Source of the DNA: Alphaproteobacteria bacterium
GTDB taxonomy: Bacteria > Pseudomonadota > Alphaproteobacteria > Rs-D84
Direction: 5' to 3'
Assembly (NCBI GenBank): GCA_009783855.1
Contig: WRCO01000015.1
Location: 1-28,149, forward strand
DNA length: 28,149 nucleotides
A model generated the notes under the pieces. It saw only the letters and a list, made by a program, of their open reading frames with translations, was not told the origin of the DNA and searched no databases. Positions 5,780 through 28,149 of the stretch are shown here, one piece after another (within the stretch, counting starts at the first letter, position 1; each line of letters starts with the position of its first letter). The translations under genes and the position numbers were made by a program.

Positions 5780-6586
5780 ATGAACACGCAATTTCATAAA
5801 AATCTTAATCGAATGGCTTTGTTTACCGCGCTTGTCGCGGCGGGGATTGTCTTTTTCCACGAAGAATTCATCGCCATCGCGCTTAACAACATCTGGCTTA
5901 ACGGCGTTATTATCGGCGCGACTTTGTTCGGCATCGGGCTTTGCTTTATGGATATGTTCCGCCTTCTTCCCGAATACACATGGCTTCACAAATTCTTTTA
6001 CACTCCGGCGCGGACCGCCGAATTGCCGCCGCGCCTGTTCCGCCCGATTGCAATCATATTGAACCGCGCGAAAACCGACCGCAACCATTATATATCGCCC
6101 CAGACTTTGGATAACTTCCTTAACATAATACTGGGCCGATTCGAAGACAGCCGCGAAGCGGTCCGGTACATTACGAATACTTTGATATTCCTTGGGCTGC
6201 TTGGAACATTCTGGGGGCTTATCACGACCGTCGGCGGATTTGGGGAATTGATGTCCGCGATGGATTTCACCGACGACGCCATCATGACCACGATGCAGCA
6301 TAATCTTGCCGTGCCGCTTTCCGGCATGGGCACGGCGTTTTCGACTTCGCTTCTTGGTCTTGGCGGGTCGCTTATCGTCGGATTTCTGGGACTTCAGGCA
6401 TCGCTTGCCCAGAATGCCATATTCCGCGAATTGGAAGAAAACCTTTCCGACCGCGCGCGCCTGTTCGGATTTCTTGGCACCGGCAATCATGGTTATGACG
6501 GCGCGCTTCCATACGTCAACGCGGCGGCGCGGGATTTATCGAAATCTATCGACCGATTGGAAAAGACGATTGGGAAACTTAAATAA
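5780..6586 (+). CDS. MotA/TolQ/ExbB-family proton-channel protein (4 TM, large TM2-TM3 cytoplasmic loop)
   Basis: 268 aa; TM pattern 2+2 with ~100-aa loop; LGLLGTFWGLITT and ...MGTAFSTSLLGLGGSLIVGFLG resemble MotA/TolQ channel helices. Confidence 0.65.
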   Translation: MNTQFHKNLNRMALFTALVAAGIVFFHEEFIAIALNNIWLNGVIIGATLFGIGLCFMDMFRLLPEYTWLHKFFYTPARTAELPPRLFRPIAIILNRAKTDRNHYISPQTLDNFLNIILGRFEDSREAVRYITNTLIFLGLLGTFWGLITTVGGFGELMSAMDFTDDAIMTTMQHNLAVPLSGMGTAFSTSLLGLGGSLIVGFLGLQASLAQNAIFRELEENLSDRARLFGFLGTGNHGYDGALPYVNAAARDLSKSIDRLEKTIGKLK

Positions 6587-6601
6587 GGGGACAAGAGAGA
6601 G

Positions 6602-7768
6602 ATGTTAAAATACAGAGTCAAGGAGAGAACAAACACATGGCCCGGTTTTGTGGACTTGTTTTCCAACCTTGTCATCATACTTATATTTCTGCTTATCGTG
6701 TTTGTGTTTCTTTGGGCGACGACGAACGTATTCGGGACAAGCGGCGGCATCCGTCAGATTGCCTCGCTTACAAGACAGAACATCGAAAAGACCGAAGAGC
6801 TTGAACAACTTCGCATAAGCGAAGAGCGCGCACGCGAACTTTTGATACTTGCCCACAGCGCGCTGCAGGCGCTTGAAGAAGATAACCAGGCATTGCACGA
6901 AGGCATGCACATTGCCCTTGCGGAAAGCGTGGAGCGGGAACACTTGCTTGACGTGACGAACGCGACGCTTTCCGAACTTGTCGCAAGTTACGAACAGAAA
7001 CTTCACGACATGCGAAGCGGCGAGGCGTCGATGCGCGAAATAATCCAAACGTTGGAAGAACAGCTTCGCGTTACCACGCACGACCAGCGATTGCAGACCG
7101 GCGAACTTGAAACTCAGCGCCAGACGCTTGCGGCGGAACTTGCCCGCATGAATGCGTTGCTTGGCGCGGCAGAGGCGCAATCGGCCGCACAGGAAGTGCG
7201 ATACGTCGAACTGTCGACGCGGCTTAACCGCGCGCTTGCCGACAAAGTCGCGGAACTTTCCCAGATGCAGGACAACCTTATGGATGCGGAAATGCGCGCG
7301 GCGTTGATGGGTCAATTCCAATCGGAATTCTATCGCGCCATACGCACGACGCTTGCGGGACTTCCCGGCGTCGACGTGTCAAGCGACCGGTTTTTGATTT
7401 CAAGCGATATATTGTTCGCGGTCGGCTCGTTCGCGCTTTCACCGGATGGAAGACAGCAAATCGGACTTATCGCGCGCGTCATAAGCGAATTGGAAGAAAA
7501 AATTCCACAGGGCACCCAATGGATAATCCGCGTCGACGGGCATACGGACATACAGCCGGTCGTACTTGGAAACCGCGGATTCCGGAACAATACCGAATTG
7601 TCGCTTTTGCGCGCACAGGCAGTAGTGAACGAGCTTGTCCGCGCAGGCGTGCAACAGCGCCGCCTTATACCGTCCGGATTCGGCGAATTGTTCCCGATTG
7701 CCGAAGACACCGACCCGGCGTCATTGCAAAAAAACCGCCGCATAGAATTGCGGTTGACAAACCCGTAA
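6602..7768 (+). CDS. MotB/OmpA-like peptidoglycan-binding protein with N-terminal TM and ~200-aa coiled-coil linker
   Basis: 388 aa; WPGFVDLFSNLVIILIFLL TM, heptad-rich Q/E/L region (res 50-250), C-terminal OmpA-like domain (...NRGFRNNTELSLLRAQAVVNEL...NRRIELRL); SD aagggga; 15-bp after upstream gene. Confidence 0.65.
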   Translation: MLKYRVKERTNTWPGFVDLFSNLVIILIFLLIVFVFLWATTNVFGTSGGIRQIASLTRQNIEKTEELEQLRISEERARELLILAHSALQALEEDNQALHEGMHIALAESVEREHLLDVTNATLSELVASYEQKLHDMRSGEASMREIIQTLEEQLRVTTHDQRLQTGELETQRQTLAAELARMNALLGAAEAQSAAQEVRYVELSTRLNRALADKVAELSQMQDNLMDAEMRAALMGQFQSEFYRAIRTTLAGLPGVDVSSDRFLISSDILFAVGSFALSPDGRQQIGLIARVISELEEKIPQGTQWIIRVDGHTDIQPVVLGNRGFRNNTELSLLRAQAVVNELVRAGVQQRRLIPSGFGELFPIAEDTDPASLQKNRRIELRLTNP

Positions 7769-7815: not shown

Positions 7816-9879
7816 TCAATCATGCGTTTTCTGCAAAAACTTTGCAATATTCTGGTCGCCGATTATCCGCGACATTCTGACTTTAATCAATCCTTGGTCC
7901 GCAAGTTTGGCCAAGATTTGCGGACGGCGGTCTTTAAGTTCGTCTATTATGATGTCTTCCATTTTATCCCGAGGCCGTCCGCAAAGATAACGCAATGTGT
8001 ATGGGCGTCCGCCTTTGTTTTTCCAAAGCCGCGCGGCAATGTAATGGGTCAATAATCTGTTTTCTGAAAAAGTAATGAAACTTGCATTTGTGCACAGCAC
8101 TTCGAAAATATCTTTTTCGTTTTTTCTTTTGGCCGCGGGCGACTGCAAAGCAAATGCTTTTTTATCATTCATCGCGACGAACAGGTTGAATCGGCTTATG
8201 ATGGTTTCGGATTTCATGGTAAGCAACGCCGGATTTACTATCGTCGCCCTCAGATACCGCTCTAACGATATATGCGGCGTGAATGCTTCGACAACCCCCT
8301 TGATATTGCGTTCCACCGTATCGGGAGAAGTGGTAAACAGCATTGCCGTTCTCATCGCAACATGCAGATATTGTTCGACCGGCATGTGCGGCGCGAATTT
8401 TTCCACCGCGCCGTTTATGTTGCTTATTATCTTGTCCGGCGACCTGCTGAACAATTCCAACAATGGCGCCTTTGCGGCAGTCTTTATATATTTTTCAAGC
8501 GTCAGCCCGGCGCGCCTAAATTCTTCAACAACGCCCATTATGTTGCGTTCTACAACACGCGGGGAAATGCTGAACAGCCAGGGATTGCTCATCGCTATCT
8601 TCGTATACTGCGCCAAAGTCGGGCCGCCCACATGTTCGAATTTTTCAACGACACCCTTTATATTGCCCACCACTGTATCGGACGATTGAGCCAACAGGTT
8701 GGGATATTTTTTCACAAGTTGCAAATATTGCGCGCGATTGGACCCCAGCTGTTCTGTAAATTCGTTCATCTTTCCTTCAAGTGTGTCCGGTGACCGAGTA
8801 AACAATGACGGCGCGCTTATCGCCATTTTCACAATTTGCGCGAACGAAAGTTCCGGCGCAAATTTTTCGGCGATTCCTTTTATATTGCGCTCTATTGTTT
8901 CGGGTAAGATGCAAAGCAGTTGCGGGACGTATTCCGCCGCTTTGATATATTGCCCAAGCGATATGTGCGGCGCAAATTTTTCCACAACGCCTTTTATATT
9001 TCGCTCTATTGTTTCCGGGTGAAGAGAAAGCGTCCTTGGGGCAGTTTCCATCATCTTCAAATATTTTTCCAACGTCAAATGCGGCGCGAATATTTCAACG
9101 GTGGCGTTTATGTGGCGTTCTATCAAATCGGGCGATGCCGTAAGCAATTGCGGAGATTTTTCCGCCATCCGCAAATATTTGCGCAAGCTCAGGCCCGCAT
9201 GCGCGAACCTTGCCACGACTTCGTTGGTCACTTCGTCTATTTTGCGGTCCGCTCTGTCGGACAGTTGAACATCCGGCGACGACCATTTCAGTTTCCCTTT
9301 GCGCAAAGCGTATATCGACACTGGGCCGGTCGGCTTTCCGGATTGTTCGCCGGCTTTGGCAAACTCCGCCCATCCAAGAATTCCGGCAACCTTTTCACGG
9401 TCGAACATTTTGTCAAACAGTTCCGGGGCCGAAAGCGCCGCCGACAAAGCCTGTGCGCGGGTAAGCGGTGGGAATTCTTTGACCAGGGCACCTATGTTAT
9501 ATCCCGCCATCCTGGGCGAAAGGGTAAACAGCACCGGATTTTCCAGCGCCGCCCGCCGATACCTTGGCCACGTCAGGCCGTCTCTTTCGAATTGCCGGAC
9601 CATCCCGTCCACAACATATTCCATTTCATCAACCGACATGGAAAGCAGCGACGGCATCTTTGTCACTATTTGCAGGCAATACGAATGCGACAAATCAAAG
9701 AATGCAAGCATATCGTCGAAAGTTTTCCTGAAATTCAAACGAAAGCCGTTTTTTTCGATTTGTGTTTTGGTAAACTCGTCATTTATCAATTTTTCTGCGA
9801 CATCGTCTATGGTGTCTTTTGGGAATCCCGAAATTGTCATAAGCTGCAATTTGACCTGGGTCTTTAGATTGTTTGTCAT
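7816..9879 (-). CDS. Large tandem-repeat protein: >=12 copies of ~37-aa helical repeat (P-x-LL-x-x-SP-[DE]-T-[IV]-E-R-N-I-K-G-V-V-E-K-F-A-P-H-x-S-L-x-x-Y-L-K), mTERF-like
   Basis: 687 aa; repeats read directly (e.g. PQLLCILPETIERNIKGIAEKFAPELSFAQIVKMAISA); spacing of P-LL, I-x-x-V-x-x-F and L-x-x-I matches mTERF-type motif (inference). Confidence 0.6.
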   Translation of the reverse strand: MTNNLKTQVKLQLMTISGFPKDTIDDVAEKLINDEFTKTQIEKNGFRLNFRKTFDDMLAFFDLSHSYCLQIVTKMPSLLSMSVDEMEYVVDGMVRQFERDGLTWPRYRRAALENPVLFTLSPRMAGYNIGALVKEFPPLTRAQALSAALSAPELFDKMFDREKVAGILGWAEFAKAGEQSGKPTGPVSIYALRKGKLKWSSPDVQLSDRADRKIDEVTNEVVARFAHAGLSLRKYLRMAEKSPQLLTASPDLIERHINATVEIFAPHLTLEKYLKMMETAPRTLSLHPETIERNIKGVVEKFAPHISLGQYIKAAEYVPQLLCILPETIERNIKGIAEKFAPELSFAQIVKMAISAPSLFTRSPDTLEGKMNEFTEQLGSNRAQYLQLVKKYPNLLAQSSDTVVGNIKGVVEKFEHVGGPTLAQYTKIAMSNPWLFSISPRVVERNIMGVVEEFRRAGLTLEKYIKTAAKAPLLELFSRSPDKIISNINGAVEKFAPHMPVEQYLHVAMRTAMLFTTSPDTVERNIKGVVEAFTPHISLERYLRATIVNPALLTMKSETIISRFNLFVAMNDKKAFALQSPAAKRKNEKDIFEVLCTNASFITFSENRLLTHYIAARLWKNKGGRPYTLRYLCGRPRDKMEDIIIDELKDRRPQILAKLADQGLIKVRMSRIIGDQNIAKFLQKTHD

Positions 9880-10003
9880 TTTGATGATTCCTTTTCGTCC
9901 GCCCTCCGTTACAGTATTAGACTAAATAACAATAAGTCAAGCCCAAAAACAGCCCCCGCATTCGCAAATTGATTTCCAAAAATATTAATATATACTGACC
10001 CTT

Positions 10004-10972
10004 ATGAAAACAACCAAAATCTTTGGTGCCGGCGAACTTGGCGCGGCGGCGGATATTATCCGACGCGGCGGGCTTGTCGCATTTCCGACGGAAACTGTTT
10101 ACGGACTTGGCGCGGACGCGGCGAACGGCGCGGCATGCGCCGAAATCTATGCCGTAAAGGGCCGGCCCGGCGACAACCCGCTTATCATCCATGTCCATGA
10201 TATTGCCGCGGCGGATAAAATCGCCGTCGTCTGTCCGCTTGCAAAAAAATTATTCGAAACATTCGCGCCCGGTCCAATCACAATCGTTATGCAATGCCGG
10301 CCGCCGTCTATAAACGGCGGACCCGATGTCGGGGTTCGCATTCCGCGTCATCCGGTTGCGCGAAAATTTTTGGAATTGTGCGATACGCCGGTCGCCGCGC
10401 CGTCTGCGAATATATCGGGCAGATTATCGCCGACGACCGCCGGCATGGTTATGCGCGATTTGGATGGGCGGATAGACGGCGTCATCAAATCGGACGACGA
10501 CATTGAATGCGGTTTGGAATCAACCGTTGTGTCTGTTCTTGGCGGCGCGGTGCGCCTGTTGCGCGCCGGAACAATTTCGCCGGAACAAATCGAAGAATGC
10601 ATCGGCGCGCCTGTTACGGTCGCAACCGCGCCCACAGCGGGCGAGCGCGCCCTGTCCCCGGGACAAAAATACAAACATTATTCGCCAAGCGTGCCGATGG
10701 AAACAATCGAAGACATTGACGCCTTGCATGCTATAACAGACAAACATAAAAACGAAAAAATCGGTGTCATGACCCTGGCCGCGCCGAAGCAAAGCACAGA
10801 CGGATGGGATGTGCGGGTCTTCAAAAGTCCGGCCGATTATGCAAAAAATCTTTATCGCACGATGGATGAAATGGGTCGCGGCGGATGCAAGAAAATCATC
10901 GCAATCCTTCCGCCGGATACCGGCGTCGGGCGCGCGATTCGCGACCGCCTTGTCAAAGGCGCGGCTGTCTAG
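10004..10972 (+). CDS. tsaC: L-threonylcarbamoyladenylate synthase, Sua5/YrdC/YwlC family (t6A biosynthesis)
   Basis: 322 aa; FPTETVYGLGADA YrdC signature, C-terminal Sua5 extension. Confidence 0.8.
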   Translation: MKTTKIFGAGELGAAADIIRRGGLVAFPTETVYGLGADAANGAACAEIYAVKGRPGDNPLIIHVHDIAAADKIAVVCPLAKKLFETFAPGPITIVMQCRPPSINGGPDVGVRIPRHPVARKFLELCDTPVAAPSANISGRLSPTTAGMVMRDLDGRIDGVIKSDDDIECGLESTVVSVLGGAVRLLRAGTISPEQIEECIGAPVTVATAPTAGERALSPGQKYKHYSPSVPMETIEDIDALHAITDKHKNEKIGVMTLAAPKQSTDGWDVRVFKSPADYAKNLYRTMDEMGRGGCKKIIAILPPDTGVGRAIRDRLVKGAAV

Positions 10973-12618
10973 CGCGCTTTTTTCTGAATCTTCAAAACGG
11001 CATCAGCCCGTATGGAATTGGCGGCAAGGATTGCATCCATTTCTTCCTGTGATTTTTTGAAAAGCGTTCTGAACGAATACATCTGCCCGCACTTTGATTT
11101 CAAAATATTCGCGGCGCGCGAAAGGTATTTCAAATGTTCTTCCGGCAATTCCAGCACGACGGGCATTTTGCACAGCGCGTCCCAAATATTCTGGGCGGCG
11201 GCGATATAGAATTCCTGTCTTGCATGCATTCCGACAATTATATTGATGCGGCGTATAACGACCTTTGGTTCCATAAACAGCAATGGGCACTTTTGCGCCA
11301 TTTGTTCGCAATAGGGGCGGGTAAGCCCCGCGCGTTTGAAATACAATCCGACGGTGTCTATATTGCGGTTCACAGTTGCCGGCGCCCAATTGTCAAACAC
11401 AGAGTCAGGTTTGCGGCAAGGTTTCGCGGGCTCCGTCTCTATTTTGTTATCCCGCCTTTTCATATTTGCGCGGCGGTCGGCGGCGCGTTGTTGGGGCGCG
11501 TTTATAATTTCGCGAATTTCTTTGTATGTCACCGCTTCGGGCGGAGTGACAAACAGCCGCGGATTATCCAGCGCCGCCTGTACATATATAGAACGTGTCA
11601 ATCCAAAGACAGTAAATTTGGCAACCGTTCCGTTTATATTTTCGGGCAAAGTTTCCGGAGTGACCAGCAACAGGAATCTGTTAGACCGCACCGCCGCTCG
11701 GAATTGATTGAATGTCAAATCCGGCGCCAACAGTTCGACGACTTTGTTTATGAATTTCGCAACCCTGCCCTTTTCGAACAAATCCTCTGCGGAAGCGTCC
11801 GCCGTTTCGTGCCCCGTTTTTTCCGGCAATTCAACCGGGGGAAGCAATGACAACGAAAGCGGCCGATAATACAGCGGCAACGACAGCGGCAACGAATACA
11901 ACGGCAACGACAAACGCGGCAATGATAATGTCGGCATCGGCATCGACGGCAACGGCACGAACACAGGCGGCGGCGCGCGTTCCGAAGTTTGCGTGATTTC
12001 AAGTTCCGCGATATGCGGCACGACTTCGACGACCGGTGGCGCGGACAGCGCGGGCGTTTGTATGGTTTTTTCTTGCACGTCTATTTCTATCGCGCCTTTT
12101 TCACAAGGCCCGGCAAGGACAATCCGGCCATCCAAAGCCGCGTTAAAGTAATCCGCATGGGAACACCCAAGCTTTTTAATAATCGATTCGATTTTTTCCG
12201 CCATCCGGTCGGGCGACAAATAAAACAACTGTAAGCATCCGCAAAGCGCCATCCGCACGGCGTCCGCCCGCGTCAGGTATTTTCCGTATTTGCCCATAAA
12301 CGCGTCCATGCAATATCTTGCGGCGCCGGATTGCGTGTAAAACACCTGGCTGTCTTGGAATTCAAGCGCCGCTGCAAGATATTCCGGAATGGTCAAGCCA
12401 TCGCTTTGGAAAGTTTCGGCGGTGTCTTTTATATTGTCGGCTATGTCGGGAAGCGACAACCGCGGCTTTTCAGAAATTAATTCCTTGAATTCTTTCCTTG
12501 GCAAATCCGGCGCAAGCGGCTTCAGTTTATCATAAATCCTGTCCGCCCATTTCGCAACAACCATTGGGTCAATTCCCACGCCGTCCAGCCTGATAGGTCC
12601 CGATTGAAATGGCTTCAT
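10969..12618 (-). CDS. Second repeat protein of same ~37-aa (mTERF-like) family, split by Pro/Leu/Ser-rich low-complexity linker
   Basis: 549 aa; repeats e.g. NRFLLLVTPETLPENINGTVAKFTVFGLTRSIYVQAALDNPRLFVTPPEAV; linker LSLPRLSLPLYSLPLSLPLYYRPLSLSLLPP encoded by imperfect CAGCGGCAACGA-type nucleotide repeats. Confidence 0.55.
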   Translation of the reverse strand: MKPFQSGPIRLDGVGIDPMVVAKWADRIYDKLKPLAPDLPRKEFKELISEKPRLSLPDIADNIKDTAETFQSDGLTIPEYLAAALEFQDSQVFYTQSGAARYCMDAFMGKYGKYLTRADAVRMALCGCLQLFYLSPDRMAEKIESIIKKLGCSHADYFNAALDGRIVLAGPCEKGAIEIDVQEKTIQTPALSAPPVVEVVPHIAELEITQTSERAPPPVFVPLPSMPMPTLSLPRLSLPLYSLPLSLPLYYRPLSLSLLPPVELPEKTGHETADASAEDLFEKGRVAKFINKVVELLAPDLTFNQFRAAVRSNRFLLLVTPETLPENINGTVAKFTVFGLTRSIYVQAALDNPRLFVTPPEAVTYKEIREIINAPQQRAADRRANMKRRDNKIETEPAKPCRKPDSVFDNWAPATVNRNIDTVGLYFKRAGLTRPYCEQMAQKCPLLFMEPKVVIRRINIIVGMHARQEFYIAAAQNIWDALCKMPVVLELPEEHLKYLSRAANILKSKCGQMYSFRTLFKKSQEEMDAILAANSIRADAVLKIQKKAR

Positions 12619-12620
12619 GT

Positions 12621-13154
12621 CTAGTGTTCCGGGTTTGATATTTTTTTAAGCTTTGCCGCAAACAGTCCGACTTCCGAAGCCTGGCGTTTTGCATATCTGG
12701 CAATCGCGTCGTTGATAATTTTGTTACGCTTGTCCGCATTGTCGTTGTTATAGGCTTTTTCCAATATCTTGTACGCAACCATGGCGTGAAAGCCTTTCAG
12801 GCATTGCTCTGATTCTATCACCACTTCGTACGTTTCTTTTTTCGCCCCGACCGTATATGGATATTTTTCCACGGTTCTTGTTGCTTGGGCGTACTTGTGA
12901 AAGTCCATGGTTTCGGTATAGCGGACATCATCGCATTTTGTAAGAACTTTTTCGTCCGTGGTCGACCCTATACTGTCAACGCCATTGCCGCCTATATAGT
13001 GTATTTCACAGGAATATGTTAAATTTTCCGGCGATGCCGTTGCAAGCGCGCCCCTCAGTTCGTTCGACACTGTGTCAACGGCTTTGTGATTGACAGAGCG
13101 AATCTCTTCGTAATCAGACTTTTTCATAACGGTTGCAAGGTTTTCGTTTTTCAT
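12621..13154 (-). CDS. Hypothetical protein, co-transcribed upstream of repeat-protein gene (2-bp gap)
   Basis: 177 aa ORF; no recognised domain; operon position. Confidence 0.45.
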   Translation of the reverse strand: MKNENLATVMKKSDYEEIRSVNHKAVDTVSNELRGALATASPENLTYSCEIHYIGGNGVDSIGSTTDEKVLTKCDDVRYTETMDFHKYAQATRTVEKYPYTVGAKKETYEVVIESEQCLKGFHAMVAYKILEKAYNNDNADKRNKIINDAIARYAKRQASEVGLFAAKLKKISNPEH

Positions 13155-13252
13155 GAATCTTTCCTTTTTATTTTATGGTTGTTCCCTTCTCCGTGTTCGG
13201 GATAGTACACTAAAATATATATTTATCAAGTATAAAATCCCCTGCGGGCCGA

Positions 13253-13282
13253 CTTGAAATCGCAAAAATTTCATCTATAGTG
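13253..13282 (+). promoter_or_regulatory. Candidate sigma32 (RpoH)-type heat-shock promoter for groESL (CTTGAAA ... CTATAGT)
   Basis: CTTGAAA -35-like element 15 nt upstream of CTATA core, ~20 nt before groES SD; no CIRCE inverted repeat seen. Confidence 0.4.
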
Positions 13283-16111: not shown

Positions 16112-16162
16112 GCGCACGCCGAACCACCCATCACGAACTTTGTTCGCGTCGGGGCCCGGTAT

Positions 16163-21691: not shown

Positions 21692-21747
21692 GCTGGGAAT
21701 AATATCACAAATTGATATTTATGTCAAAGAGCGGTATCATAAACATC

Positions 21748-21777
21748 TTGACAAACATTTGAAGCGGGGTGTATAAA
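21748..21777 (+). promoter_or_regulatory. Sigma70-like promoter TTGACA-18bp-TATAAA for paralog pair
   Basis: perfect TTGACA (21748-21753), TATAAA (21772-21777), SD aaggat before ATG 21803. Confidence 0.5.
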
Positions 21778-21802
21778 CCAACATAATCCAAAGGATATAA
21801 AG

Positions 21803-22078
21803 ATGACGATGGAAGAAACAGCTTTTATTAGCCGAGTCAACGCATGGCTTAAAACACATTCGCCGACATTTGCCGAAACCCCCATTCGCGGCGGCGAGAC
21901 AATTGTCACTATGTACAACATCGGCAACCATATAACACTGGAACGCCAAGTAACGGACGAATACATAGAATACAGCGGCGGGATAAACGACGGGGGCAGA
22001 TTCCGCACGTTCCGTCAAAGGACGCTTAAACAGGCATTCAACCTTGCCGCCGCCGCACATGCAAGAATAAAAGCATAA
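21803..22078 (+). CDS. Hypothetical small protein (paralog 1)
   Basis: 91 aa; good SD; N-terminus MTMEETAFISRVNAWLKT parallels next gene. Confidence 0.45.
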   Translation: MTMEETAFISRVNAWLKTHSPTFAETPIRGGETIVTMYNIGNHITLERQVTDEYIEYSGGINDGGRFRTFRQRTLKQAFNLAAAAHARIKA

Positions 22079-22081
22079 AGC

Positions 22082-22708
22082 GTGACGTGGTCGGATGAAC
22101 AATTTATCGAACAAGTGCGCGGCTTTCTTAACAAGCCGGACAGGACGACGGACGAAATAAGAACATCCGGCGCAACCGCGTACATTATAAAATGCAAAGA
22201 CGGCCTGATAAGCCTTGAAACACACAAAGCCGGGCACCGCTTTGTAATATGCGGAAACAACCGTTCGACTTTGGACACGGAAATGCCGGGGATAAGCAAG
22301 ACAGCAATCGCGCGGGCGTACGGCATGGCGAACCTTGCGCATCGGCGCGACCGGTCGCACCGCCCTGTGACAAAAGAGCAAACGGCGGCGCAATTATTAT
22401 TGGAATTAACGGAATCCGATGTCGTGCCAAGAAATAAATTTCTTTCCGACCTTCAAAGAAACCTTCAGCATCCGCAATGGAAAATCGACCTTTGGCACAT
22501 TGAAAACCGCCACCCCGACATCATAGTATGCTGGGTCGATGGTTACAGTCTTGAATGCCACCGCACGGAAAAGGCAATCGAATACAAAATCACATGGATG
22601 GACAACCGCGATGCGTCCCGCCCGCGGCTTGGGCATGAAACGCTTCGCGCGGCATGCAATATGATTGCATCCGCGTTTATAAACAGACAGCGGTACGGAC
22701 GCGGGTAA
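22082..22708 (+). CDS. Hypothetical protein (paralog 2 with ~110-aa C-terminal extension); GTG start
   Basis: 208 aa; MTWSDEQFIEQVRGFLNK... aligns with paralog 1 over first ~90 aa; opposite-strand 218-aa ORF judged antisense artefact. Confidence 0.45.
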   Translation: MTWSDEQFIEQVRGFLNKPDRTTDEIRTSGATAYIIKCKDGLISLETHKAGHRFVICGNNRSTLDTEMPGISKTAIARAYGMANLAHRRDRSHRPVTKEQTAAQLLLELTESDVVPRNKFLSDLQRNLQHPQWKIDLWHIENRHPDIIVCWVDGYSLECHRTEKAIEYKITWMDNRDASRPRLGHETLRAACNMIASAFINRQRYGRG

Positions 22709-22712
22709 AATA

Positions 22713-23309
22713 TCACCGCGCCTTTTCTTTATACAACGTTTCGACCAATTCCATCACAGGCCGCACGCCGATGTCGAAAAATTTCATCTGGCCGATACTG
22801 TTCGAAATCATATATGAATGAAACAATCTGCATCCGGCGAAGGAAATGTCAAAGTAATACGGCCCCCCGTCCAAAACGCCGTCAAGATAGTTAAGGACAT
22901 CCCCGTTCGTCGGATTATGGATAACATACCCGGTAAGCCCAAGCTTTTCATGCCTTATCAGATATTTTACGACAACGGTGTCGTCTTTTTTCACATAGTC
23001 GTTATAAAGCATCCGGTCAAGCGCGTCTTCGGAATCCGCGGCGCAAACAATGCGTTCTATGGGATAAATCTCTGCAAGCGATTTCACGGTTTCAAGACTG
23101 AGGGTTTCGAACTTTTCTATCGCCGCCTTCACCAACCGCTTGCGCTTAAGCATTCTTTTGTAAAAGTTTCGCAGCACGGTATTGACGGGCTGCCAGCCCA
23201 ATTCCGCCCTGGATCCTGCGCGCTCTACGCGCATGCATTCTACCATAAACTTGCATACAATCGTTTTTGCCCTCTCTTGCGCCGAAATGATGTCGGTGTT
23301 GGAATTCAT
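22713..23309 (-). CDS. Hypothetical protein (second gene of 2-gene operon)
   Basis: 198 aa; start ATG overlaps upstream stop (TGAtATG). Confidence 0.45.
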   Translation of the reverse strand: MNSNTDIISAQERAKTIVCKFMVECMRVERAGSRAELGWQPVNTVLRNFYKRMLKRKRLVKAAIEKFETLSLETVKSLAEIYPIERIVCAADSEDALDRMLYNDYVKKDDTVVVKYLIRHEKLGLTGYVIHNPTNGDVLNYLDGVLDGGPYYFDISFAGCRLFHSYMISNSIGQMKFFDIGVRPVMELVETLYKEKAR

Positions 23310-23310
23310 A

Positions 23311-24225
23311 TCATCGTACTATCGTGCATCTTGTCGCAATCATGCACCGTGCGCCCACGTCCTCGACAGCGGCGTACGGCACGTGGACTTTGACCGGCCT
23401 GCCCGAATCAATCCGTTCGCGGCCGTCGTAATACGAACCTTTGCCGAATGCCTCTTGCCATCTTTGTTCGGTGAAGACTTCTATCTTTTTCGGCGGGAAT
23501 TTTTTTGTGCCGGCGGTGATTTCTCTGAACCAGCTTATGTTGCAAACCGTCGAAGTCGGAATCTCCGCCAATTCATACGTTATTTCGCCGTCAAGGCCGA
23601 TGATGGCGTATGTTTTTTCGATTTTTTCCCGGGGGTTCTCCCATGACTGATTCTGTGCTATGTACCCGATGACGTAACCCTGCATCAATACGAATCCTTT
23701 GACGGCGAATTCGGTATCGGAAAAGCCCGGGTATGCCAAAACGAACCTTTTCGACGCCGAATCCAGTTCGCCAAGGTATCCGCGCATCGCCGGTCCGTAC
23801 AAATTCTTTTGATATTGCAGTGTCGGCTTGTCCAGAATATTTTTGTCATCCTTGGCATGCGCAAGCCAGAAATTATAATAAGCATTCGGATGTATGATTC
23901 CGTCGACCATCCAGAAGTTTGTCATAATTTGTAATTTCCTATAGAAGTCTTCGCCGGCATTCCGGAATATAATGTCGCAGAACAGGTTTTGTTCCACAAT
24001 CTTGTTTATATTCTGTGTATATTCGTTCATGAAACTTTCCGGAAAATTTATGCCGCGGCAAGTGAACGATTTCAAATCATACGCATTCATCCCGCTTGCT
24101 TTTCCCCTCAAGCCGGCTGGGTCGGCAAGGAATTCGGCAAAACTTTGGTATGTGCGGGCGTCGCAATTGTAATTCTTCGCTCTTTTCTTTATCGATTCAT
24201 TGACAAGTCGTATTGCTGTTTTCAT
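23311..24225 (-). CDS. Hypothetical protein (first gene of 2-gene operon)
   Basis: Start refined to MKTAIRLVNES with SD aaagagg 6 nt upstream; 304 aa; W/Y/F-rich, no domain recognised. Confidence 0.45.
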   Translation of the reverse strand: MKTAIRLVNESIKKRAKNYNCDARTYQSFAEFLADPAGLRGKASGMNAYDLKSFTCRGINFPESFMNEYTQNINKIVEQNLFCDIIFRNAGEDFYRKLQIMTNFWMVDGIIHPNAYYNFWLAHAKDDKNILDKPTLQYQKNLYGPAMRGYLGELDSASKRFVLAYPGFSDTEFAVKGFVLMQGYVIGYIAQNQSWENPREKIEKTYAIIGLDGEITYELAEIPTSTVCNISWFREITAGTKKFPPKKIEVFTEQRWQEAFGKGSYYDGRERIDSGRPVKVHVPYAAVEDVGARCMIATRCTIVR

Positions 24226-24462
24226 ATTGCGCCTCTTTTGAACGACCGCCGCGCCGCGCCGGTTTGTGGGCGCCATTGTATTATATAATTACATTTTGTC
24301 AAGCGTCGGACGACTTATAATCCCCTTACATATTTCTTGACTTCATTCCTGCGCGGGTATATCATTCCCGCATCTGATATTTACATACAGGGCGCGGGTG
24401 CCGTCGGCGCGCCGGCTGATGGGTTCGATGGAAATAAACAAACAACAAAAAGGAAAAGAAAC

Positions 24463-24999
24463 ATGAAGAATATGAAGAAAATTAATGTAAAGGATTTGGC
24501 GAAAGTGCTTAAAGTCGGCGGATGGATTGTCGCCGGCATGCCCGCGATTTGGGCGCTTGGCAACTTGTTGTCGCTTTCGGCCCTTGTGTCTTGCGTGCTT
24601 TTTATCGCGGTTCTTACGATTTCATTTCTGGACAGGAACTGGCTTAAAAAAGCGGGCAAAGATGTCAAGAAGATTGAAATCTGGTGGTGCCTTTTGCCGC
24701 CGGTTTATCTCTTCAAACGCGCAAAGCTTTTGGGCGGTAAATTGACCGCGGTTTGGATCTGGTCCGGACTTTTTGCGATTGGGCTTATCTTTGCGCTTAT
24801 TTCCGGTGGTAATAATCCGGCGGCGCAATTTAATGCGCAATGCATGCAGGGTCTGCGTTCCGACGCTCCGGTTGAAATCGCACAGAGATATTGCGATTGC
24901 ATGACGGAACTTGCCGCGCGGGTTAACTTTATTCCGGAAGTCCTTGCGAACCCGCAATTGCAACAGCATTGCGCGCGCGTCGCGATGAGATTGCAGTAA
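24463..24999 (+). CDS. Small membrane protein (3-4 TM) with Cys-rich C-terminal domain
   Basis: Start at ATG 24463 after aaaaggaaaag SD; TM helices; followed by terminator. Confidence 0.5.
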   Translation: MKNMKKINVKDLAKVLKVGGWIVAGMPAIWALGNLLSLSALVSCVLFIAVLTISFLDRNWLKKAGKDVKKIEIWWCLLPPVYLFKRAKLLGGKLTAVWIWSGLFAIGLIFALISGGNNPAAQFNAQCMQGLRSDAPVEIAQRYCDCMTELAARVNFIPEVLANPQLQQHCARVAMRLQ

Positions 25000-25020
25000 A
25001 GAAAAACAAACAAATAAAAA

Positions 25021-25041
25021 CCGCGCGCCGCGCGGTTTTTA
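25021..25041 (+). terminator. Intrinsic terminator CCGCGCGccgCGCGCGG + TTTTTAT
   Basis: aaaaaCCGCGCGCCGCGCGGttttta 20 nt after stop. Confidence 0.75.
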
Positions 25042-25261
25042 TTTACTCGGCGATTTGGTGGCAGGAACGTCCCTTATGAGACGAGAAGCGCACACATTGC
25101 AGGTCAAACCGCGATAACCACTTCTTCTTTTTTGTAGTCTAAATTGTATTTGAAAGTATTTCCGAACGGCAGAAAGTGACATATGCCGGACATAAGAAAT
25201 GAACATACTGCCGACATAAGCTAAACTATTTTTAGTAGCTTTTCAACGTGGTTTTTATATA

Positions 25262-25281
25262 TTGTCCACTATAGTGGACAA
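25262..25281. repeat. 20-bp perfect palindrome TTGTCCACTATAGTGGACAA; -35 (TTGTCC) of promoter with TATAAT at 25284-25289
   Basis: Exact palindrome; extended flank atat...atat; 77 bp upstream of ATG 25359. Confidence 0.9.
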
Positions 25282-25358
25282 TATATAATGGATGCTGTAA
25301 ATTGCTTTTCGTAAATATATGAATTACAATTACTCTCGAAAATTCAAAAGGAGATTTA

Positions 25359-26036
25359 ATGTTCGTACCTAATCTTGATTTGTTGCACAAAAGCTCTGAA
25401 AGACCCGAACGAGAGCCGTATATTGCGATATTCAGGAAAGGTGAGAAAATTTTGATATACATTGCGGAAAAGCATAGTGCCAACGAGTCTTTCGATATGA
25501 CGGATTTTTGTTTTTCGGACAAATCTCCGGCCGCACCGCAGGTAGTACTTGTAGAATTTGAGCGGTCCGGAAGAAAAGCAGGGACTGGCGAGATTCATGG
25601 CAACAATTTAGCCTATGCGGCCGCACGCGCCACAGAGTGCGGACTGCCGGTAATCTTTGCGGATTTATCTCGGGACGAATGTCTGGATGTTTGGCGTAAA
25701 AGGTATCCGGAACGCATATTTACGGATGAAGATTTGCGGAGAGCTCGAAGAACCGGTAGACCGAGCACAAACAAAGGCGAGGACAGTTTACTTTTATATG
25801 AACTTGAGTTATATGGTCGCGATCCTTTTATGGTAAAAAACATAGTGGCGGCATTAAACAAATATGAAGTCGTTTTGGCAGTATTTGGTGAAGGACATTA
25901 TCGCGCCCAAAGACTTGTTCTGGAAGACATTATGGGCAAGCCGGAATATATAAAAGATGTCCCGAATACGCGCGGCGATTTCAGCAATTGTAAAATTGTC
26001 CCGATAGATTTAGGTGTTACAATAGCAGAACGATAA
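25359..26036 (+). CDS. TraB/GumN/PrgY (Tiki-like) family protein
   Basis: 225 aa; YIAEKHS (cf. GTAHVS), PQVVLVEFERS (cf. PDvVavElc), C-terminal VLAVFGEGHY (cf. vvGagHl) match TraB-family landmarks (inference). Confidence 0.4.
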   Translation: MFVPNLDLLHKSSERPEREPYIAIFRKGEKILIYIAEKHSANESFDMTDFCFSDKSPAAPQVVLVEFERSGRKAGTGEIHGNNLAYAAARATECGLPVIFADLSRDECLDVWRKRYPERIFTDEDLRRARRTGRPSTNKGEDSLLLYELELYGRDPFMVKNIVAALNKYEVVLAVFGEGHYRAQRLVLEDIMGKPEYIKDVPNTRGDFSNCKIVPIDLGVTIAER

Positions 26037-26069
26037 ACTATTGTCCACTATAGTGGACAATAGTTTATC
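26032..26069. repeat. 38-bp perfect palindrome GATAAACTA-TTGTCCACTATAGTGGACAA-TAGTTTATC containing family palindrome; between convergent genes
   Basis: Exact; encloses TAA stop (26034-26036) of TraB-like gene; candidate bidirectional hairpin terminator. Confidence 0.9.
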
Positions 26070-26370
26070 TGATTTCGACTTGAAGTTTTATATCAAATAA
26101 ATTCAACAGACGTAAAATTGTTATAAATTCGGGATTGCCGTCCGATGATAGCATTTTATAAAATCCGCTTTTGGAAATTCCCAGTGTTTCAAAAATAGTA
26201 GAAATTCTGTGATGCGTTTTCGAGAGTTCTTTTAATACAGATTTAATTTTTTCTATATCCAAATTATCCAATGCGACGGATAGTTCGCCAATCAATTTTG
26301 GGTCGATTTCTTTATTTTTCAAAAAATGTTCCCGCTCAATCTTTGGCTTGGATAAAAGTGAAAAACGCAT
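26065..26370 (-). CDS. HigA-like addiction-module antidote protein (HTH; TIGR02684-type), orphan
   Basis: 101 aa; C-terminal ISTIFETLGISKSGFYKMLSSDGNPEFITILRLLNLFDIKLQV matches ...GLSRESLYKALS.GNP.FDTILKVLKALGLKL... of this family; no RelE/HigB-like partner upstream. Confidence 0.6.
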   Translation of the reverse strand: MRFSLLSKPKIEREHFLKNKEIDPKLIGELSVALDNLDIEKIKSVLKELSKTHHRISTIFETLGISKSGFYKMLSSDGNPEFITILRLLNLFDIKLQVEIR

Positions 26371-26405
26371 ATTGCTCTCCTTGGGCTATATGCATCATTA
26401 TAATG

Positions 26406-26425
26406 TTGTCCACTATAGTGGACAA
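26406..26425. repeat. 20-bp perfect palindrome TTGTCCACTATAGTGGACAA forming -35/spacer of HigA-like gene promoter (TATAAT at 26397-26402 on minus strand)
   Basis: Exact palindrome 36 bp upstream of start 26370; TTGTCC-17-TATAAT then SD aaggagag. Confidence 0.85.
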
Positions 26426-26541
26426 GCATTTAATTAACGCGGCATAAATAAAACAAAGACATAGTTGGAAAATATTGGTGTTTTTATAGTTTATGAGGTG
26501 GCGTTGCTTGCTACATATCCGGGACATAGAAATCGGAGATA

Positions 26542-26570
26542 TTGCCGACATATATCAAACTATTTTTAAT
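26542..26570 (+). promoter_or_regulatory. Sigma70-like promoter TTGCCG-17bp-TTTAAT inside conserved ~70-bp module, reading into palindrome 26582 and antisense to the HExxH gene
   Basis: Module ~78% identical to 25178-25247 upstream of TraB-like gene. Confidence 0.4.
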
Positions 26571-26581
26571 AGTTTTTTAAC

Positions 26582-26601
26582 TTGTCTACTATAGTAGACA
26601 A
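26582..26601. repeat. 20-bp perfect palindrome, T-variant TTGTCTACTATAGTAGACAA
   Basis: Exact; abuts stop of HExxH gene (26603). Confidence 0.9.
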
Positions 26602-26602
26602 A

Positions 26603-27538
26603 TTATCGAACGGTTTTTCGTGATCCAATCGTACGGGAAATTATTTTGAACATCACTTCTTCTAAATCTTCTTTGCAGCCGCTGTCATAGTATTCTTTGA
26701 TTAAAGGATACGATACTGGGAATACATCATCCACGCCACATCCCTTGTGGTAATCTTTCGCGGCAGAATCAATATTTCGAATGCAACAATCAAGACCCAC
26801 CACCAATGCCTGTTCATAGTGGAATTGCCATCCTTTATAATCCACTTTTTCCATAAATTTGACGATTTTATTATTTTTTGCCCATTCTTCTTTTAACAAT
26901 ATATGCAAGCCTTCGTGAGTAAAACCAAAATCATGCCCCGGGCGACGCATTGTTCCCATGCTGACATTGGGCTCGAACCATATTGCTGCCTCTGCCGTTG
27001 CTTCTGTGGGAAATACATAGAAATCATCCCCCGGTATGCGCTGCGTGGCAAGTTCCATTTTTTCAAGGGCTTCGGCGAAATCGAAACCGTTCGCGCATTT
27101 TTCAAACAAAGCCTCTCTGTCTTTCAATGTTTCCCGCCAGTAATCCCGATAGAATTTTTCCCAGCTTTTCCGCAAAGCCCGATCGAAATTAACTTCAGTA
27201 ACACCCATGTGAACGTTCTCCAAATCGACCGGCTTTTCCCAGATTTTATTGTCCATTATGTATTGCATGCCGGTTTCATATATTCGCAAACGTTTTTTCG
27301 GCTTCCAATCAGACGCATAAAAATTCTGGCCGGTGCGGGTGCAGTACTGGGGTTGTATTATTTCTTCAAATATTTCACTGTCGATTGACTGACGCACTTT
27401 TTCATTCTGCCGCAAGGCATACTGGTTGCCCTGCACCCCCAGCATCCCGTAAATATTCAACGTATGAATAAAAAAGTTCACCGCTTCGTTACAGCTGATG
27501 ATTATTTTTGCGTTTTTTGTGGTTACTACTTTATTCAT
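26603..27538 (-). CDS. Putative zinc metallopeptidase (HExxH: FTHEGLHILL), family not recognised
   Basis: 311 aa; single HEGLH motif; low-GC gene bracketed by palindromes. Confidence 0.45.
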   Translation of the reverse strand: MNKVVTTKNAKIIISCNEAVNFFIHTLNIYGMLGVQGNQYALRQNEKVRQSIDSEIFEEIIQPQYCTRTGQNFYASDWKPKKRLRIYETGMQYIMDNKIWEKPVDLENVHMGVTEVNFDRALRKSWEKFYRDYWRETLKDREALFEKCANGFDFAEALEKMELATQRIPGDDFYVFPTEATAEAAIWFEPNVSMGTMRRPGHDFGFTHEGLHILLKEEWAKNNKIVKFMEKVDYKGWQFHYEQALVVGLDCCIRNIDSAAKDYHKGCGVDDVFPVSYPLIKEYYDSGCKEDLEEVMFKIISRTIGSRKTVR

Positions 27539-27617
27539 TTCTTGGTCCGCTTATAGGTAATTTTGAATATTATAAATCATATTTTTACATAAACAACCTC
27601 AAAAGCGCTAATTATGC

Positions 27618-27637
27618 TTGTCCACTATAGTGGACAA
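27618..27637. repeat. 20-bp perfect palindrome TTGTCCACTATAGTGGACAA (extended gcTTGTCC...GGACAAgc); -35 for HExxH gene promoter (CATAAT 2 bp downstream on minus strand)
   Basis: Exact; 80 bp upstream of ATG 27538. Confidence 0.85.
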
Positions 27638-27723
27638 GCATATGCGAACAGCCGGATATGGTAGGCATGTCTCCACATATAATGATTGTTATACGAAAAA
27701 AGAAAAAATAATAGAAAAATGCG

Positions 27724-27743
27724 TTGTCCACTATAGTGGACAT
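27724..27743. repeat. Near-perfect palindrome TTGTCCACTATAGTGGACAT (1 mismatch), tandem to 27618 copy (106 bp apart)
   Basis: Read directly. Confidence 0.85.
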
Positions 27744-27849
27744 AATTGTAAAATATTAGCGTTCTTGTAGTTTAAGCGCACGCATCCGGCCTTTGCCCGT
27801 TGGGCTTCGGCGGACAGGTTGCCCGCTACATATACGGAACTATTTTTCA

Positions 27850-28125
27850 TTATCTGCCCTGTCGCATTTGTGACAAGGCTTGCTTTATTATCATAAATTC
27901 ATTGGTGCCGAAATAAGCATAGCAATGCACAAAAAAGGCCGCTTCAAGCGCTTTGTCGTCGATGTTCTTGTCGCTTGCTATTTTTTGCAGCCGTTGCAAC
28001 AAATCAAAGGCCTCCGGGATTTGTATCCGCACGATGCGGTTTTTGTCGGCCGACTTCGCCTTTTCTTTCACGATGGCGTACATTTGATTCCACTGCACCG
28101 TAAAATCGTTCATCAGATTGCGCAT
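27850..28125 (-). CDS. Hypothetical small protein
   Basis: 91 aa ORF; low-GC; no domain recognised. Confidence 0.35.
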   Translation of the reverse strand: MRNLMNDFTVQWNQMYAIVKEKAKSADKNRIVRIQIPEAFDLLQRLQKIASDKNIDDKALEAAFFVHCYAYFGTNEFMIIKQALSQMRQGR

Positions 28126-28149
28126 TTGCGGGGCAAGTTCTCCCGTGGT

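Follow-up and report, generated by a model that had tools for sequence, protein, structure and literature searches.

Two neighbouring mTERF-like repeat proteins of a termite-gut alphaproteobacterium and their prokaryotic relatives

An uncultured termite-gut alphaproteobacterium carries two neighbouring genes, here called A and B, which code for helical-repeat proteins of a prokaryotic family that resembles the mitochondrial transcription termination factors (mTERFs) of eukaryotes. The two genes lie on contig WRCO01000015.1 of the metagenome-assembled genome (MAG) GCA_009783855.1, amid ompA-like, tsaC and groESL genes; the 28,149 nucleotides (nt) of this contig that were analysed are referred to below as the window. 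The proteins, 687 and 549 amino acids (aa) in length, recur with 100% identity in independent assemblies from ENA, Logan, JGI and NCBI and so are not assembly artefacts. Both are probably cytoplasmic, sequence-specific DNA-binding solenoids of the kind known as prokaryotic mTERF-like proteins (pTERFs), a function proposed by analogy with characterized relatives. For the window itself the gain is modest, in that two hypothetical proteins can be assigned to a family and a fold and be given a function open to testing; the family to which they lead is broad, and it bears on the origin of a family of organelle gene-expression factors.

Repeats and fold of proteins A and B

The repeats were located with a 39-residue unit hidden Markov model (HMM), which was built only from canonical units of other family proteins in order to avoid circularity, and which was run on the six-frame translation of the window. 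Protein A is matched with a full-sequence E-value of 1.3e-113 and contains 12 unit matches (aa 64–99, 101–136, 139–155, 229–266, 268–304, 309–343, 350–375, 383–415, 421–455, 458–497, 501–535, and 539–572), 11 of them with an independent E-value below 0.01, the match at 139–155 being a partial unit; no open reading frame (ORF) of the window other than A and B is matched in any of the six frames. The initial annotation of the stretch had described the 687-aa protein as 12 mTERF-like units of ~37 aa in tandem. The units are real and the length is close, but the period is 38 aa (36–40) in A and 39 aa in the family as a rule, and the array is not strictly tandem, as ~70 non-repeat residues (156–228) part two to three N-terminal units from a run of nine. 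At the DNA level, the repeats of A appear as direct-repeat families with a spacing of 114 nt and an identity of only 60–77%, which speaks for an old and not a recent amplification. The units have the consensus GLTLEDYLKAALKQPSLFYQSPETIEKNIRGVVERFADE, in which P15, P22, L2, L8, L17, F18, I25, I29, V33, and F36 are conserved. Each unit carries the conserved proline and the regularly spaced leucines or other hydrophobic residues of the mTERF motif, and their spacing is not exactly that given for animal mTERFs (positions 8/11/18/25).

Both profile and structure comparisons place A among the mTERF proteins. In Pfam, A scores 44.2 bits with the mTERF family PF02536 (E = 1.5e-11; gathering cut-off 23.1), and its residues 345–454 align unit for unit with positions 159–262 of the PF02536 HMM. 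The AlphaFold2 model of A, calculated from a nine-sequence alignment, has predicted local distance difference test (pLDDT) values of 80–96 over residues 210–660, and in each modelled unit helices of ~14, ~10, and 4 residues are strictly repeated, giving the two α-helices and short 3-10-like helix, stacked into a superhelix, by which the mTERF fold is recognized. When this model was compared with the PDB by Foldseek, places 1–17 were all occupied by mTERF proteins; human MTERF1 (E = 2e-5, target-normalised template-modelling score 0.60–0.65) was followed by MTERF3, MTERF4, and mitoribosomal mTERF-fold proteins, with mS93, mL114, and mL121 among the structural matches, and a second structure comparison, carried out independently, gave a concordant result. 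HEAT, TPR, or PPR repeats had been named in the initial annotation as the competing identity; neither Pfam nor Foldseek gave a profile or structure match of A to these or to Sel1, and the 33–35-aa two-helix unit, repeat-variable diresidue, and fold of the transcription activator-like effectors (TALEs) are absent.

At the sequence level, similarity to the eukaryotic proteins is low, identity to eukaryotic mTERFs being only 10–19%. A search of PDB chain sequences with A alone retrieved nothing, the nine-sequence profile reached MTERF4 at E = 0.37 among chance matches, and a 92-sequence family profile matched MTERF1 best, at a marginal E of 0.0085, along with Tetrahymena mS93. By Pfam score and predicted fold taken together, A qualifies as an mTERF-family protein. 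Scans against PADLOC, PHROGs, and NCBIfam gave no meaningful match for A, B, or the short ORF upstream of B, termed C.

Judged by its sequence, protein B is a distant and partly degenerate paralogue of A. The unit HMM matches it at E = 7e-27, with degenerate units in two blocks (aa 74–149 and 317–466), and BLASTP aligns A and B at 23% identity (E = 1e-13) in an alignment that takes in the non-repeat C-terminal tail. The AlphaFold model of B contains ordered helical blocks at residues 17–165 and 277–549 (pLDDT 75–93), with a helix pattern like that of A, and a disordered linker between them, in agreement with the earlier description of the 549-aa protein as the same repeat type in two blocks separated by a Pro/Leu/Ser linker. 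Both proteins are basic, with an isoelectric point (pI) of 9.4 for A and of 9.9 for residues 285–549 of B, and no homologue of B closer than 28% identity was found. Of the family tails, that of P0004, an alphaproteobacterial member, resembles the tail of A most, and the tails of A and B alike have their closest counterparts in alphaproteobacterial members, so that both proteins look native to the class; the tail similarity is consistent with a duplication inside the class that was followed by strong divergence of B. Within gene B, nucleotides 11851–11957 form a tandem DNA repeat with periods of 12, 15, and 27 nt (TRF arrays; direct-repeat family D5) that codes for the Leu/Pro/Ser linker, which suggests that the linker grew by replication slippage, and its length might vary between strains.

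Spread, architecture, and evolution of the family

A word-indexed homologue search with A returned only eight relatives, whereas 1.84 billion cluster representatives (50% clustering), searched exhaustively with a profile, yielded 817 at E ≤ 1e-3, with 252 at E ≤ 1e-30. Genomes, one per GTDB species, were surveyed with a degenerate DNA pattern for N[IVM]x6Fx3GLTx3Yx7PxL; a true family ORF is present at 75 of the 92 loci recovered, and the remaining ~17, for example in Paenibacillus, Zhongshania, and Lacihabitans, are chance matches without a family ORF. About 29 family loci lie in Gastranaerophilales, Melainabacteria, or Vampirovibrio, and about 19 in Planctomycetota, among them one in the complete genome of a cultured strain, Planctomicrobium sp. 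SH527. A further 12 are found in Alphaproteobacteria MAGs, two of which are labelled Rickettsiales (L092 and L098), three are found in DPANN archaea, and single cases occur in Verrucomicrobiota, Blastocatellia, Clostridia, Acidimicrobiaceae, and others. Pfam mTERF matches 61 of the 92 family members scanned, the best at 1e-24. Besides DPANN archaea, the family thus spans at least four bacterial phyla, and the view of the initial annotation that the motif is essentially eukaryotic is not supported, given this distribution and the 817 prokaryotic representatives. Reviews and a 2026 survey confine mTERFs to animals and plants, and the survey still describes them as absent from prokaryotes (PMC12977773), statements that the prokaryotic mTERF-like family contradicts.

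Members of the family consist of a variable N-terminal region with a conserved cap motif, 4–13 units, and a non-repeat C-terminal tail of ~105 aa; in nearly all full-length proteins, ~80–130 aa follow the last unit. In long members, a sigma-70 region-4 helix-turn-helix (Sigma70_r4) lies just N-terminal of the array, at residues 197–243 of P0003 and 199–245 of P0014, both above the cut-off. Other apparent accessory domains (Flg_hook/FliK, NikA, RuvA_C, PrgI, PAH_ZNF598, and DUF4817) were rejected as artefacts in which weak matches within the repeats are summed and no single stretch is significant; such repeat-caused whole-protein Pfam artefacts also occur in the precomputed annotations of the family, where they are misleading. 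Among the surveyed loci, no gene partner is conserved across phyla, and only lineage-specific synteny and, in a few loci, relaxase or integrase neighbours were seen.

These neighbours are a MobF/TrwC-type relaxase of ~900 aa, adjoining family genes of different phyla (L016, L041, L044, and L074), or a P4-type integrase (L062, L064, and L074), which suggests that some members are carried on conjugative or integrative mobile elements. Another Alphaproteobacteria MAG (GCA_044432975.1, L004:10001-12111) carries two family genes of 391 and 311 aa back to back; they follow flhA directly and close a flagellar cluster comprising flgD, flgE, fliF, fliG, fliH, fliN, a sigma-54 activator, and flhA. The 1291-aa P0013, from the Gastranaerophilales contig of L030, contains two separate arrays, each with a tail-like segment, and looks like a fusion of two family genes; its N-terminal region resembles a HAD-type phosphatase by eye only. 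In the 1602-aa P0018, nine N-terminal mTERF-like units precede a hydrophobic, putatively transmembrane segment and very long FG-GAP-like "GDVNGDG" repeats, and the protein may be membrane-anchored with the repeat array on the cytoplasmic side.

The closest genome found, the Alphaproteobacteria MAG Nt197P3bin78 (L082), was recovered from the P3 hindgut of Neocapritermes taracua, a humus-feeding higher termite (PMC7024585). Its segment L082:5981-8000 was compared with window positions 7816–13280; synteny is clear, and the motA-like and ompA-like neighbours are 82% and 69% identical to their counterparts. The orthologue of A in this MAG, a 585-aa protein with a Pfam mTERF score of 67.9 bits, is only 34% identical and lies directly beside groES, and the block of tsaC, B, and C (10004–13154, ~3.2 kb) is missing. 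Comparison of these sequences indicates that A evolves much faster than its neighbours. The direct adjacency of the A orthologue to groES implies that the tsaC-B-C block is an indel between the two lineages. The placement of A and B on both sides of tsaC had been read as a sign of old duplication; duplication is plausible at 23% identity, but, because the related MAG contains the A orthologue only, the flanking arrangement is a lineage-specific rearrangement and not ancient.

On a longer time scale, eukaryotic mTERFs might derive from a prokaryotic pool of mTERF-like proteins, and proteins of the A type would then be living relatives of endosymbiont DNA-binding terminators or regulators whose genes later moved to the nucleus. 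Alphaproteobacteria are the lineage of the mitochondrion, and Melainabacteria are sister to the plastid lineage. The concentration of the family in Alphaproteobacteria and in Melainabacteria/Cyanobacteriota, and the occurrence of the N-terminal cap and C-terminal tail in archaeal members as well, point in this direction, yet such a descent is at present doubtful; if it were true, the bacterial function of A would reveal the original role of mTERFs.

Likeness to pTERFs and proposed function

The pTERFs are prokaryotic mTERF-like tandem-repeat proteins described in Nucleic Acids Research in 2024 (PMC11417379). The first of them, pTERF1 (MBQ3414883.1, from a rumen MAG), binds ACTNNNAGTC with a dissociation constant (Kd) of 1.9 nM, pTERF2 binds a different motif, and the published set comprises ~47 proteins, mostly from Bacillota, with a period of 35 and arrays of 3–11 units (PMC11417379). 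Like the pTERFs, A and B are prokaryotic proteins from gut-metagenome MAGs, labelled hypothetical, which consist of serial three-helix units of ~35–39 aa annotated as mTERF; in both groups the AlphaFold models resemble MTERF1, and the arrays comprise 3–11 units in pTERFs, 4–13 in the A/B family, and 11–12 in A. A prokaryote-encoded tandem array of mTERF-annotated three-helix units of ~35 aa, by which pTERFs are recognized, is present in A, with 11–12 units of 36–40 aa, and in B, with ~8 degenerate units. Unlike the pTERFs, A and B are alphaproteobacterial, have a period of 38–39 and a "GLT" segment in the unit, and possess a conserved N-terminal cap and C-terminal tail; sequence-specific binding of double-stranded DNA (dsDNA) with nanomolar affinity, a feature of pTERF1 and pTERF2, would extend to A and B by analogy. 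The family profile also reaches a period-36 subfamily with up to nine units and an N-terminal helix-turn-helix-like segment (for example P0100, P0056, and P0083), of which P0056 and P0083 score 60–69 bits with Pfam mTERF. One of its top matches, P0010 (MBR1616635.1), carries an accession neighbouring the MBQ/MBR series to which pTERF1 belongs, and P0010 and pTERF1 presumably stem from the same rumen-MAG dataset. With 817 representatives against the ~47 pTERFs of the 2024 screen, the prokaryotic family is much larger than published, and it offers further natural scaffolds for programmable DNA binding.

Eukaryotic mTERFs (human MTERF1–4, plant mTERFs, mS93, mL114, and mL121) share with A and B the three-helix unit and a basic character, and with A also the PF02536 match. 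Eukaryotic mTERFs are nuclear-encoded and organelle-targeted, whereas A and B are products of bacterial genes, with relatives in bacteria and archaea, show no organelle targeting, and carry the extra N-terminal cap and C-terminal tail; the units of the A/B family are near-identical in length and strictly serial, whereas the motifs of eukaryotic mTERFs are degenerate and interspersed. TALEs and TALE-like proteins (AvrBs3, BurrH/Bat, and MOrTL) are likewise bacterial proteins with serial helical units of 33–39 aa that form a superhelix, and with rapid repeat evolution, and their DNA wrapping and variable-residue specificity may have a counterpart in A and B. However, A and B lack the repeat-variable diresidue pattern, and TALEs are type III-secreted, of which there is no evidence here.

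The mTERF fold of MTERF1 wraps dsDNA, and PDB entries 3mva and 3n6s, both among the matches, are DNA complexes. Given this fold, the biochemistry of pTERFs, the basic pI, and the helix-turn-helix fusions in relatives, A and B would be expected to bind nucleic acid, with DNA the more probable ligand. The ~38-aa units, each folded into two α-helices and a short third helix, stack into a superhelix that resembles those of human MTERF1 and MTERF3. In the proposed mechanism, by analogy with MTERF1 and the two assayed pTERFs, the basic surface of the repeats would wrap dsDNA and read a specific sequence. Specificity would be set by the positions that vary from unit to unit, and the nine contiguous units of A, with their flanking modules, would form the reading surface. 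Both proteins would then act inside the bacterium as site-specific DNA binders, whether as regulators, as roadblocks or terminators, or as nucleoid organisers. Protein A, with its N-terminal cap, 11–12 units, and C-terminal tail, has the complete family architecture, and B is a diverged duplicate in which a disordered linker, probably made by slippage, splits the array into two short modules; B may be a weaker version, may bind a bipartite or shorter site, or may be decaying. A cytoplasmic location is likely for both proteins, as no hydrophobic signal-peptide-like stretch is evident in their N-termini, which were inspected by eye only, no predictor having been run, and none of the window ORFs scanned was recognized as a gene of a type III, IV, or VI secretion system.

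Several observations weigh against this proposal. The A/B family would belong to the pTERF kind by its period-36 subfamily and by properties shared with the published description of pTERFs, rather than with the pTERF1 sequence itself. The model of A is poor over its first 210 residues, B has no Pfam match at E ≤ 1, and the top 12 Foldseek matches of B, all of them mTERFs, have non-significant E-values of 0.07–1.1. No candidate autoregulatory or target motif common to the A/tsaC and C/groES intergenic regions rose above chance. The fast divergence of A also fits an arms race with a host or phage, and several eukaryotic mTERF-fold proteins bind RNA or ribosomes, with MTERF4, mS93, mL114, and mL121 among the structural matches of A.

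The last of these points would also fit binding of A and B to RNA, with a role in the biogenesis of rRNA or ribosomes or in the processing of RNA, as for MTERF3, MTERF4, and the mitoribosomal mTERF-fold proteins. The basic character of the proteins is compatible with such a role, as is a neighbourhood rich in translation-related genes, namely rpsF-rpsR-rplI, tsaC, and an MTS-type methyltransferase; this neighbourhood is, however, not conserved in other genomes. The only prokaryotic relatives that have been assayed bind dsDNA sequence-specifically with a nanomolar Kd (PMC11417379), members of the family are fused to DNA-binding helix-turn-helix domains, and the fast divergence of A is unlike that of a factor docking on conserved rRNA, all of which makes an RNA-binding role unlikely.

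The initial annotation had regarded such eukaryotic-like solenoids as typical of intracellular symbionts and pathogens that inject effectors. According to this explanation, A and B would have been acquired from eukaryotes, or would mimic mTERFs, and would be secreted into a host cell, where their targets would be nucleic acids of the organelles or the nucleus. Elsewhere the fold is familiar from proteins of eukaryotic organelles, the habitat of the organism is an animal gut, two Rickettsiales MAGs carry family genes, B is preceded by an ORFan with which it is plausibly co-transcribed, and A has retained only 34% identity between related gut MAGs against 69–82% for its neighbours. Yet family members are plentiful in groups that are not known to be intracellular (Gastranaerophilales, Planctomycetota with the cultured Planctomicrobium, DPANN archaea, Blastocatellia, and Verrucomicrobiota), its cap and tail modules are common to bacteria and archaea, and some members are fused to a bacterial sigma-70 region-4 helix-turn-helix. 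The absence of secretion genes among the window ORFs scanned, with relaxase and integrase as the only cross-phylum neighbours, also speaks against injection, as does the origin of the related MAG from a higher termite, a group whose gut microbiota is described as entirely prokaryotic and flagellate-free. Since identity to eukaryotic mTERFs is so low, a recent transfer from eukaryotes is unlikely, and an effector function as a whole is highly improbable; a eukaryote-like repeat in a bacterium is not automatically an effector.

A generic scaffold that binds peptides or proteins in the manner of TPR, HEAT, or Sel1 repeats, with B perhaps a decaying, pseudogene-like copy, is equally remote: α-solenoids often bind proteins, P0018 combines its array with a putatively transmembrane segment and with FG-GAP-like repeats, and B has degenerate units, a slippage-derived linker, and no close homologue, but all strong matches are to nucleic-acid-binding mTERFs and none to TPR, HEAT, PPR, or Sel1, the B ORF is intact and identical in independent assemblies with confidently modelled ordered blocks, and a pure protein-scaffold role is without positive support.

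Features and neighbours of the locus

The coordinates that the initial annotation had given for A, tsaC, B, and C were all verified, and the features of the locus are collected in Table 1. Beyond C lie groES and then groEL, and the A/tsaC and C/groES intervals are divergent intergenic regions. The tsaC gene is a bystander; tsaC and B converge, their 3' ends sharing 4 nt (10969–10972), and there is no terminator-like structure between them.

Table 1. Genes, protein segments, and promoter-like sites around A and B (window positions).
Feature	Position	Strand	Description or basis
Gene A	7816..9879	minus	687 aa; GenBank MCL2758400.1, labelled hypothetical protein
A aa 1–62, N-terminal cap motif (...FxLNFRKxF...)	9694..9879	minus	Alignment with Planctomicrobium, Pacearchaeota, Aenigmatarchaeota, Clostridia, Blastocatellia, and the L082 orthologue; low pLDDT
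A aa 64–155, N-terminal block, 2–3 units	9415..9690	minus	Unit-HMM matches
A aa 156–228, non-repeat insert	9196..9414	minus	No unit match; pLDDT 34–55 over residues 150–210
A aa 229–572, main array, 9 contiguous ~38-aa units	8164..9195	minus	Unit HMM; pLDDT 80–96; DSSP helices; 114-nt DNA spacing
A aa 573–687, non-repeat C-terminal tail domain, family-wide (~105 aa)	7819..8163	minus	Alignment
Promoter-like site TTGACT-16-AATACT	9913..9940	minus	Upstream of A, A/tsaC divergent intergenic region; consensus scan only
tsaC (Sua5-type threonylcarbamoyl-AMP synthase)	10004..10972	plus	322 aa; Pfam Sua5_yciO_yrdC 5.3e-50, Sua5_C 1.4e-22
Gene B	10969..12618	minus	549 aa; MCL2758402.1, labelled hypothetical protein
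B aa 17–165, N-terminal helical block, ~4 degenerate units	12124..12570	minus	pLDDT 79–91; unit-HMM fragments 74–85, 130–149
B aa 169–281, disordered Pro/Leu/Ser-rich linker	11776..12114	minus	pLDDT ~30, no secondary structure
B aa 282–466, C-terminal block, ~4 units, with basic disordered insert at aa 385–410	11221..11775	minus	Unit HMM 317–335, 339–364, 412–428, 431–466; pLDDT 74–93 outside the insert
B aa 467–549, family-type C-terminal tail	10972..11220	minus	Aligns to A 553–644 and to the tail of the L082 protein; pLDDT 84–92
ORF C	12621..13154	minus	177 aa; ORFan; MCL2758403.1, labelled hypothetical protein
Promoter-like site TTGATA-16-TACTAT	13202..13229	minus	Upstream of C, C/groES divergent intergenic region; consensus scan only

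ORF C stops 2 nt ahead of the ATG of B and has its own AAGGA ribosome-binding site. The earlier statement that the 177-aa ORF is co-transcribed with the 549-aa gene agrees with this spacing and this site, and co-transcription itself is plausible. A search of 5.8 billion proteins for homologues of C retrieved only C itself, and C has no match in Pfam, NCBIfam, PADLOC, or PHROGs.

Elsewhere in the window, positions 25001–28149 have a G+C content of 0.36–0.42, compared with ~0.50 in the remainder, and this end is possibly a horizontally acquired island; a Pfam scan gave no match for the ORFs at 25359–26036 and 26603–27538, nor for those in the stretch of normal G+C content at 21737–24999. The ORF at 16162–17259 matches glycosyltransferase family 92 (PF01697, 1.6e-30), a family described mainly in eukaryotes, and may be another eukaryote-like gene on the contig. 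Positions 5780–7768 are occupied by a conserved gene pair that may form a stator-like module, in which a membrane protein with a weak ZorA/MotA-like match (NCBIfam 5.9e-5, far below the cut-off) is paired with a coiled-coil, OmpA-type peptidoglycan-binding protein of the PRK09039 type.

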